In this document: in pieces, positions 31,439 through 34,201 of the stretch
Layout of the letters: each line of letters begins with the position of its first letter
How positions within the stretch are numbered: position 1 is the stretch's first letter
Source of the DNA: Escherichia phage JoYop
DNA length: 64,000 nt
Strand: one strand, 5' to 3'
Sequence record: OR769032.1
Translations under genes and position numbers: made by a program
Notes under the pieces: model-generated
Database searches by the model: none
The model's input: only the letters and a program-made list of their open reading frames with translations
Told to the model about the DNA's origin: nothing

Positions 31439-31469
31439 TGTTTTGTGAAAAATTTTTAAAAATAAAAAA

Positions 31470-31487
31470 GGGAGCCCGAAGGCTCCC
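31470..31487 (-). terminator. UUCG-tetraloop hairpin
   Basis: gggagcc-cgaa-ggctccc. Confidence 0.5.
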
Positions 31488-31489
31488 TA

Positions 31490-32503
31490 TCATTTATAAT
31501 AACTTCGGTGGTTTTCAAGATAAACCTTCTCAAGGAAGTCATCCCAGAAACTCATGTCTACTTTTTGCTGCATACCGTTCTTAGAAGCTTCAGTAGATGC
31601 TGCTTCTACTTGATCGACCACATCTTCCAAAAACTCTTGAACCGTTTTAAACGGATGCTTACCCAACTTCACGTCGAGAATAAATGGAGCATCTTTGAGT
31701 GGATAGACCAAGTCACCAGTTTTGTAAATTTCCAATAGTTGGAGTCCACCACGACAAGCATGACTTAGTGCTTTCCAGTCAATACCTTCATTGGCTTCAG
31801 CCTTACGAGCACGTTCACCGTATTCAGCATCTAATTTGTTCAGTGACTGCTTAAGCTCAATAAGAGAAAGCGTTGTCTGATATTTACGACCCAACACAGT
31901 GTAGAACGTTTGAGGGCCTGTTTTCTCATGATTATGGAATACCCATTCACAGAATTCGTTTTCTGGAAGACGATGCTTAATATCTTCAACCTTGGTACGA
32001 CGCTGCTTAATATAACCATCTTCTTGATAGTCAACCCACTGATCAGGGATTTGATTAACTACTTTCAATACATCACGTAATGCAGCCAAACGAGAACCCT
32101 TAACGCCATATTTAGAAGCTTGCTTACGAACATATCCTAAATAGGATTTCATGTTAGTCGTATAAAAACGAGAACGGTTGTCTTGAATAAACTTCCATAC
32201 GTCAGGCAAATCAGATTTAACCACTAGTTCAGGTGGAGTGTGAAGCATATCTAATGCTACAGTTTCACCATCTGCTGCTAATTTAAAGAAATACTTAAGA
32301 CTATACAATTCGTGGTCAATATCATCTTTAGTGTTTTTAGATGATGTGTTGTTAGTGTTTTTACTCATGTGCTCTTTAACGTTTCCGATAAGAATATCAC
32401 GAGCAGGAGGAACAAAAATTTCTTTAAAATCTACATCAGATTCTGGAGTAGAAGTTCCATAAAGATGACTACCAAAATAGCTTTTCATTACTGTTTTCAT
32501 CAT
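31490..32503 (-). CDS. Pol-beta-superfamily nucleotidyltransferase-like protein
   Basis: 337 aa; N-terminal GSHLYGTSTPESDVDF (GS-x9-11-DxD motif) followed by a helical domain. Confidence 0.6.
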   Translation of the reverse strand: MMKTVMKSYFGSHLYGTSTPESDVDFKEIFVPPARDILIGNVKEHMSKNTNNTSSKNTKDDIDHELYSLKYFFKLAADGETVALDMLHTPPELVVKSDLPDVWKFIQDNRSRFYTTNMKSYLGYVRKQASKYGVKGSRLAALRDVLKVVNQIPDQWVDYQEDGYIKQRRTKVEDIKHRLPENEFCEWVFHNHEKTGPQTFYTVLGRKYQTTLSLIELKQSLNKLDAEYGERARKAEANEGIDWKALSHACRGGLQLLEIYKTGDLVYPLKDAPFILDVKLGKHPFKTVQEFLEDVVDQVEAASTEASKNGMQQKVDMSFWDDFLEKVYLENHRSYYK

Positions 32504-32961
32504 TCAGCCTTATATTCAATAACAGGACATACTTTAGCTTTACGCGCTTTTAAAAATTCGATAATAAGAGATTTCTTGGGTTGAATAGGAGGTAAATCTT
32601 TATACGCTCTATTAATATTTTCTACGTGTAAAGCATAATCCTTTTTCCATTTATAATTTTTATATTTTTCACGCAAATGCGCAGGAATAACAAATGAACC
32701 GATAATAAGTAAAACAACCAAAAGAGCAAGTATAAATGCCGATGGAAGAAGAGTCCATAAACTACCGAAAATAAGCCAACGTTGTAGACTTTCTGCACAA
32801 ATAATTGTTAGCCCTACGAGTATAGCACACCCAAAAATAGAAACGAAAAATGTAGGGATAGCAATAGACCAAAAGTATGCACATAGTGTCTTAGGTCGTT
32901 GCCATTCGTCGTTAAACAATTTGAACAATTTATAGTGCCAGGAGTTTTCATTAATAATCAT
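32500..32961 (-). CDS. multi-pass membrane protein
   Basis: 153 aa; three or four hydrophobic segments. Confidence 0.55.
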   Translation of the reverse strand: MIINENSWHYKLFKLFNDEWQRPKTLCAYFWSIAIPTFFVSIFGCAILVGLTIICAESLQRWLIFGSLWTLLPSAFILALLVVLLIIGSFVIPAHLREKYKNYKWKKDYALHVENINRAYKDLPPIQPKKSLIIEFLKARKAKVCPVIEYKAE

Positions 32962-32963
32962 AA

Positions 32964-33485
32964 TTATCCTTTCATTGAAGGTGTAACAGTTGTTAAATAC
33001 TTAATCATAGCTTCAGCTTCTGATTTTGATAATGAAATTTCTCCATTGTTTTGACGAATAGAAATAAAATCCGGATGACGGTCACCACCAGCTTTTAAAA
33101 CACACATATAAGTATCAGTTTCATCTTCAATATCTGAAATGATTGAAGCAGTTCCGCATGAATGCGGTTTTTGATAAATCAATACAGCTTTTCTTCCACC
33201 GTTTGACTGTTCATAAACTTTTAATACATCAAACAAATCAGTTCTTTTATCAATAGCTAAAATGTTATTTTCATCTTCAATGTTAAATCCTTCGGATACT
33301 TCATAAAGCGTTACCCATAAATCGCCAATATCAATAACAGCATTTACGTTTCCACGACTTTCAAGAGTATGACAAATTTTCTTGATTTCATCATAACTCA
33401 TTTTAATAATATCATCTCCTTGAATAAGGAAAATATCATTTTTAAATTCAACACGAATTAAACCACTTTCACTTGAAATATACAT
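32964..33485 (-). CDS. hypothetical protein, paralog 1
   Basis: 173 aa; C-terminus ISIRQNNGEISLSKSEAEAMIKYLTTVTPSMKG resembles the next gene. Confidence 0.55.
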   Translation of the reverse strand: MYISSESGLIRVEFKNDIFLIQGDDIIKMSYDEIKKICHTLESRGNVNAVIDIGDLWVTLYEVSEGFNIEDENNILAIDKRTDLFDVLKVYEQSNGGRKAVLIYQKPHSCGTASIISDIEDETDTYMCVLKAGGDRHPDFISIRQNNGEISLSKSEAEAMIKYLTTVTPSMKG

Positions 33486-33491
33486 ATTTCC

Positions 33492-34037
33492 TCACTTTGA
33501 AATCATAGTTGGAATGACAGAATCAAGATAAGTCTTTAGCGCAATAGCTTCGTCTTTGTTTAATGTAATGATATGTGATCGAAAATCGTCAATTTGACGA
33601 ATAGATACTACATCTCCCTCTTCATAGCATTTTGACACATTTAAAATAGTTTCATCATTCTGATTACAGGAGTTAGTAATAATAGCATTACATTTTTTAA
33701 ACCATTTTAAATTATGTTTTCTTTTAGTAGAATCATAAAAATATTTAATCTTAGTTATAAAATTATCCCAATTATTAATTGATAAGCATATTGACTCGCT
33801 TTCAATGTTAAATCCTGGGCATAAAGAATAAAAATGAATTTTATGCTCATCATTAATGCTTACAATTTTATCAGTATAAGGATTTTCAATTTGGGTTAAA
33901 TGAATGATTTCACTAGGCGTAAAATATAGCATATCGTCTTCTTGCGTCAAACGATACATATTATTTACTTTTTCTATAGCCAATTCACCAAAAAGTGAAC
34001 TAACTTCTAATACTAATCGTTTCGCCTCTCCCATCAT
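33492..34037 (-). CDS. hypothetical protein, paralog 2
   Basis: 181 aa; C-terminus VSIRQIDDFRSHIITLNKDEAIALKTYLDSVIPTMISK. Confidence 0.55.
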   Translation of the reverse strand: MMGEAKRLVLEVSSLFGELAIEKVNNMYRLTQEDDMLYFTPSEIIHLTQIENPYTDKIVSINDEHKIHFYSLCPGFNIESESICLSINNWDNFITKIKYFYDSTKRKHNLKWFKKCNAIITNSCNQNDETILNVSKCYEEGDVVSIRQIDDFRSHIITLNKDEAIALKTYLDSVIPTMISK

Positions 34038-34201
34038 TACATACTCCTCTGAATCATATCAATAATGTTGTTCACCAAATTATAAGTAAACATTGGGTAA
34101 TTATATTGAATCATCACATACACAACAAGCAAAACTTTCATTCTCTTCTCCTTGGCAGTTGACAAGATTACTATACCATAACCTTGCCAACTTGTAAACC
34201 A

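Follow-up and report, generated by a model that had tools for sequence, protein, structure and literature searches.

Which proteins are encoded by the two adjacent small genes that lie behind a predicted early promoter in Escherichia phage JoYop, how are they related to each other and what might they do in infection? JoYop is a Tequatrovirus other than T4, and the region has matches in 502 related phage records. An initial annotation of the window (the whole stretch of 64,000 nucleotides of record OR769032.1 that was analysed) described the two ORFs as unknown genes with related ends. Both in fact have names: the longer (181 amino acids) is mobD.1 and the shorter (173 amino acids) is RB32ORF097c (097c below), and the GenBank record for phage RB51 already describes the orthologue of the latter as 'similar to mobD.1'. 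Here we ask how far the similarity extends, what fold the proteins are likely to adopt and what their neighbours suggest about function.

Layout of the predicted early unit

The order along transcription is promoter, mobD.2, MobD.1, 097c, a small membrane protein, NrdC.11 and terminator, all on the minus strand, with gene junctions consisting either of overlaps or of gaps of 2–6 nt. The predicted T4-type early promoter (34170–34198, minus strand) is the best consensus match of the region, with 10 of 12 positions and an extended −10, and is also its best sigma-70-like site, bearing out the earlier placement of an early promoter near 34140–34200. It comprises a (G)TTTACA −35 element at 34198–34193, a spacer of 17 nt with TG at 34178–34177, and TATAGT at 34175–34170 (TG-n-TATAGT), so that, as read from the sequence, the putative promoter has the GTTTAC −35, extended −10, TAnnnT −10, spacing and position upstream of early genes that characterise T4 early promoters. 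The sequence from 34198 to 34170 is invariant in RB51, differs from T4 at two spacer positions, and its equivalent in OL960580 carries a T4-type early promoter annotation.

The first gene of the unit, mobD.2 (34037–34141, minus strand), encodes a hydrophobic peptide of 34 amino acids that matches PHROG 3515 (E=3.5e-22) and is so named in the RB51 and T4 annotations; a homologue on the L063 locus matches Pfam Phage_T4_Y05J. The TAA stop of mobD.2 and the ATG of MobD.1 overlap (TAATG). MobD.1 (33492–34037) and 097c (32964–33485) follow, at the positions and with the C-terminal peptides that had been given for them, both on the minus strand and separated by 6 nt. Two nucleotides beyond the 097c stop begins the gene for a 153-amino acid membrane protein of the RB32ORF096c type (32500–32961, minus strand), whose own stop overlaps the start of nrdC.11. 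The two paralogues had been placed downstream of the membrane gene; the direction is the reverse, with the membrane gene downstream of both along transcription.

That this gene encodes a membrane protein is confirmed by two long hydrophobic blocks and by a match to PHROG 944 ('membrane protein', E=2e-49); it is also the only protein to give a match in NCBIfam, at sub-threshold level. The membrane protein is found in 920 phage records by tblastn and has a dN/dS of 0.08. Its N-terminal motif (MxINxxSWH...LCxYFW) is conserved, and it ends in a basic C-terminal tail (...KA(R/K)KxKxCP...) in which six motif residues are invariant in the alignment. Over the last 50 residues the net charge is +5 to +7 in five of six homologues and 0 in the Aeromonas homologue. 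The last gene of the unit, nrdC.11 (31490–32503, minus strand), is so annotated in RB51 and T4 and encodes a Pol-beta-type nucleotidyltransferase of the RlaP family (Pfam PF10127, 44.5 bits against a cut-off of 23). RlaP adds NMPs onto damaged RNA 3' ends, and T4 NrdC.11 has been assigned to the RlaP family (bioRxiv 10.64898/2025.12.29.696909). Beyond nrdC.11, a terminator scan identified an intrinsic-terminator-like hairpin (31469–31488, minus strand; 8 bp, 6 GC, tetraloop) followed by TTTTTATTTT, which is predicted to end the transcription unit. The tightly packed genes from mobD.2 to nrdC.11 are thus predicted to be co-transcribed from the T4-type early promoter.

Comparison with relatives shows that it is T4, rather than JoYop, that is atypical at this locus. 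In 097c and the membrane gene JoYop does not differ substantively from RB51 and RB32, sister phages with the same genes: its 097c shares 94% identity with the RB51 copy (RB51ORF104), its membrane protein 97% with that of RB51, and the gene order is the same. T4 MobD.1 (y05I) is the orthologue of the 181-amino acid protein, with 93% amino acid identity, equal length and the same mobD.2 and promoter upstream. In T4, however, the place after MobD.1 that 097c and the membrane gene occupy in JoYop is taken by mobD, an HNH homing endonuclease gene, and T4 is fully viable without these two. T4-type mobD is found at 95% identity or more in 47 phage records, compared with 433 that have 097c.

Paralogy of MobD.1 and 097c

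The earlier suggestion that the two ORFs end in related sequences proved correct as far as it went. Smith–Waterman comparison of the two C-terminal peptides against 2000 shuffles gave z=10.0, upholding the significance of that similarity, but the resemblance extends over both domains. BLASTP aligns the proteins with 26% identity across 175 amino acids (E=2e-10), and the shuffle tests gave z=14.9 for the full-length proteins, 8.7 for the N-terminal halves and 8.1 for the C-terminal halves, with none of the 2000 shuffles reaching the observed score in any of the four comparisons. As each half is significant by itself, homology is full-length. Profile searches agree: the 173- and 181-amino acid proteins both match PF24449 (T4_y05I_N; E=1e-32, 112.7 bits and E=3e-41, 140.5 bits, respectively, with a gathering cut-off of 24.9 bits), PF24448 (T4_y05I_C; E=3e-23, 82.4 bits and E=5e-21, 75.3 bits, cut-off 27 bits) and PHROG 1502 (E=3e-66 and E=1e-79). 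No third copy was found by phmmer among the six-frame ORFs of the window with either protein as query. Both ORFs are intact and under purifying selection (dN/dS 0.17–0.42), and in all but one of 443 records (442) the match to 097c covers 80% or more of the protein.

MobD.1 and 097c are thus old full-length paralogues of one small phage family. With the RB51 record, Pfam and PHROGs all having catalogued the relationship previously, the paralogy is of little novelty by itself. Identity, paralogy and operon layout, taken together, can be accepted with high confidence.

How the second copy arose is less clear-cut. The two genes are adjacent, co-oriented and similar along their whole length with the same domain order, as befits tandem paralogues, and tandem duplication, proposed earlier, is the simplest origin suggested by the sequences, although an in-situ event is indistinguishable from the alternatives. 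The split is old, for similarity at the DNA level is practically gone (the longest match is 16 nt), protein identity is 26%, and in neighbour-joining trees the 097c lineage branches outside a clade of MobD.1, Mosigvirus and Dhakavirus-type proteins. With so old a split, duplication in situ, ancient duplication with later losses and import of a diverged homologue are each compatible with the data. We regard it as quite unlikely that 097c was recombined in from another phage lineage and landed beside a resident mobD.1. The position of the 097c clade would fit such an import, as would the mosaic nature of this hyperplastic region, in which the homing endonuclease gene mobD and a seg-like gene have been gained or lost nearby, a 48%-type MobD.1 allele occurs together with a 95% 097c in PhiZZ23, one contig has the 097c type only and hybrid genes exist. 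Branches in the trees, however, are long and carry no support values, and a close 097c homologue in a donor lineage was not found outside Tequatrovirus-like contigs. Local duplication, moreover, has demonstrably taken place at this locus, a stand-alone form of the C-terminal domain (see below) having been tandemly duplicated independently in L018, L019 and L041. One natural hybrid, P0011, fuses the MobD.1 N-domain to the 097c C-domain; we considered it as a sign of coevolution between C-domain and membrane protein but rejected this, as a deletion between tandem paralogues always retains the downstream C-terminus.

A predicted three-repeat fold with a separable third repeat

What fold do these proteins adopt? 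An earlier AlphaFold model of the 173-amino acid protein, built from 17 sequences, had a C-domain with pLDDT values of 40–60 and was unusable there; single-repeat scores were just ~4 while the C-domain was poorly modelled. Resolving the C-domain required an alignment of 39 sequences, stand-alone C-domains among them. With this alignment, model 2 of the 181-amino acid protein has a mean pLDDT of 85 (81–85 across all five models) and the topology bbbba, bbbba and bbbbba in three successive repeats. The two bbbba repeats make up the N-domain (amino acids 1–106 of MobD.1, nt 33720–34037; amino acids 1–98 of 097c, nt 33192–33485; both minus strand), and the third repeat forms the C-domain (amino acids 107–181 of MobD.1, nt 33495–33719; amino acids 99–173 of 097c, nt 32967–33191; both minus strand). 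The repeats are also visible to profile methods: hhalign aligns repeat 1 with the C-domain in equivalent register (probability 84.5%, E=7e-6), and the domain HMMs match secondary sites inside each full-length protein.

In the predicted structure, repeats 1 and 2 have the b-b-b-b-a-linker-b-b-b-b-a topology in one chain by which type I domains are defined (PMC7549692). They are accordingly predicted to form an intramolecular PC4/Whirly/PUR-type domain, with repeat 3 predicted to be a single PUR/PC4-like unit. The top fold matches of the AlphaFold models include Pur-alpha, PBF-2/Whirly, PC4, Sub1 and the T5 PC4-like protein; in BFVD the matches were confined to the family itself, and a protein with an established function was not among them. 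When the PDB was searched with profiles built from the full-length and C-domain alignments, chance matches alone came up (E≥0.5), and Pfam gave no match to PurA, PC4, Whirly or DUF2128 for the full proteins (E≤1) or for 18 C-domains (E≤10), DUF7189 being the only weak recurring match at the latter level. As no PUR, PC4 or Whirly match is found in sequence, the resemblance is classed as fold-level only. Judged from the models, a Pur-alpha-like three-repeat fold is likely for both MobD.1 and 097c, which would add the family to an already known fold class.

A close parallel is Pur-alpha itself (PDB 3k44, 5fgo and 8chw), in which PUR repeats I–II and III have the same arrangement as is predicted for the phage proteins and repeat III mediates dimerisation (PMC4764581). 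The type II PC4-like homodimers (PC4, Sub1, YdbC/DUF2128, Borrelia Bpur and the T5 PC4-like protein) bind ssDNA or RNA (PMC7549692); the phage C-domains differ from these in being mostly acidic (pI 4.4–5.2) and in being encoded next to a membrane protein gene. SsgB and other SsgA-like proteins (PDB 3cm1), in which the PC4/PUR-like fold is used for protein binding, are actinobacterial cell-division trimers that lack a third repeat and are unrelated in sequence to the phage proteins. The fold is also found in type VII secretion chaperones, there again for protein binding.

Further insight comes from other T4-like genera, where the C-domain also occurs alone, as proteins of 67–87 amino acids (~75 amino acids); superposition of their predicted structures on the C-domain gives TM scores of 0.62–0.82. 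We surveyed 51 IMG/VR loci carrying the membrane protein. A y05I_C ORF was detected in 27, in all of which a copy lies directly upstream of the membrane gene and in 26 of which RlaP lies no more than 2 kb downstream, with 0–3 genes inserted between membrane gene and RlaP. The same arrangement is seen in Klebsiella and Enterobacter phages, and lineages without an N-domain still have the C-domain beside the membrane gene. In the 24 more distant loci, no diverged C-domain gene was found upstream of the membrane gene, the upstream genes being unrelated; the best match there (E=0.01) was not accepted, given the tiny database searched. That the third repeat exists as a separable gene, with a copy adjoining the membrane gene wherever one was detected (27/27), is new. 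The phages in which the order is conserved all have related T4-like genomes, however, so the adjacency may be inherited synteny and not functional coupling.

Candidate functions

The explanation that best covers these observations, to which we give a probability of roughly one half, is that MobD.1 and 097c are Pur-alpha-like early paralogues that form dimers and have a small binding or adaptor role together with the membrane protein. By analogy with Pur-alpha, PC4 and Bpur, repeat 3 would pair with a second repeat 3, giving homodimers and possibly, where both paralogues are present, heterodimers; for dimerisation via repeat 3 we consider the chances even. Early in infection, the dimer would serve as a small adaptor or binding protein in concert with the product of the membrane gene that directly follows. 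The ligand would most likely be single-stranded nucleic acid, a suggestion made tentatively and at somewhat less than even odds, with RNA preferred because of the conserved RlaP neighbour and protein almost as likely because the family is acidic. Nucleic acid binding is plausible from the predicted fold, and some basic and aromatic positions of the C-domain (K99, R144, K154 and the LxW strand) are conserved, but the family's net charge is negative throughout. The whole proteins have pI values of 4.2–5.8 and stand-alone C-domains mostly of 4.4–5.2, the N-domains carry net charges of −3 to −14 and the most conserved N-domain motifs (LTQEDD and NIExE) are acidic, and this acidity fits nucleic acid binding poorly.

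Two other functions have to be weighed. The proteins could be protein-binding adaptors, using the fold for protein contacts as SsgB does, with the acidic C-terminal repeat docking on the conserved basic cytoplasmic tail of the membrane protein and the N-domain, in those genera that have one, recruiting or sequestering a protein of the host or the phage at the membrane, as might serve host takeover, exclusion or counter-defence. Uniform acidity of the family opposite a tail of +5 to +7 would suit this, as would the fact that in all 27 loci with a C-domain gene one abuts the membrane gene, whereas RlaP may lie up to three genes away from it, and that lineages lacking the N-domain retain the C-domain in that place. 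Yet charge complementarity is a weak argument, the synteny may be inherited, the 24 of 51 loci with no detectable C-domain gene imply that the membrane protein does not need a C-domain partner, and T4 has MobD.1 but not the membrane protein; we consider such adaptors somewhat unlikely. Less probable still, and in our view improbable, is that the paralogues are transcription factors that bind melted or single-stranded promoter DNA in the manner of PC4, Whirly, Pur-alpha and Bpur, modulating early phage or host transcription with diverged target specificities. Pfam calls both domains 'y05I-like putative transcription factor', transcriptional regulators are prominent among the top fold matches, and early expression is predicted from the promoter. 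The Pfam name, however, has no traceable experimental basis, the acidic charge counts against DNA binding, and the genes are dispensable, T4 lacking 097c and other lineages the N-domain or MobD.1. Nor are the conserved neighbours transcription genes; they are the membrane protein and an RNA nucleotidyltransferase.

The literature offers little guidance. The name mobD.1 appears solely in a single review, as a label on a map, and our searches found no relevant paper on y05I or its Pfam accessions, no paper tying T4 to PC4-like or PUR folds and no experiment on any member of the MobD.1 family; a PADLOC search for defence and anti-defence systems gave no match. A more elaborate extension of the Pur-alpha-like reading is very unlikely to hold in full: that the MobD.1 family is the second, after eukaryotic Pur-alpha, to combine an intramolecular (type I) with an intermolecular (type II) PC4-like domain, that the paralogues form homo- and heterodimers through the third repeat, which docks on the basic tail of the membrane protein, and that together with NrdC.11 they make up, at the membrane, a T-even phage module for RNA-end repair or counter-defence, half of which T4 lost to a homing endonuclease.

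For the T-even phages, the outcome is that an uncharacterised early gene family gains a concrete and testable structural identity, with three predicted Pur-alpha-like repeats, of which the third is separable, in the company of one small membrane protein and usually of RlaP. As T4 has mobD in place of the second paralogue and the membrane gene, RB-type or wild Tequatroviruses are the better place to look for phenotypes of the module. Should the link to RlaP be functional, the family would be relevant to phage RNA repair and counter-defence.

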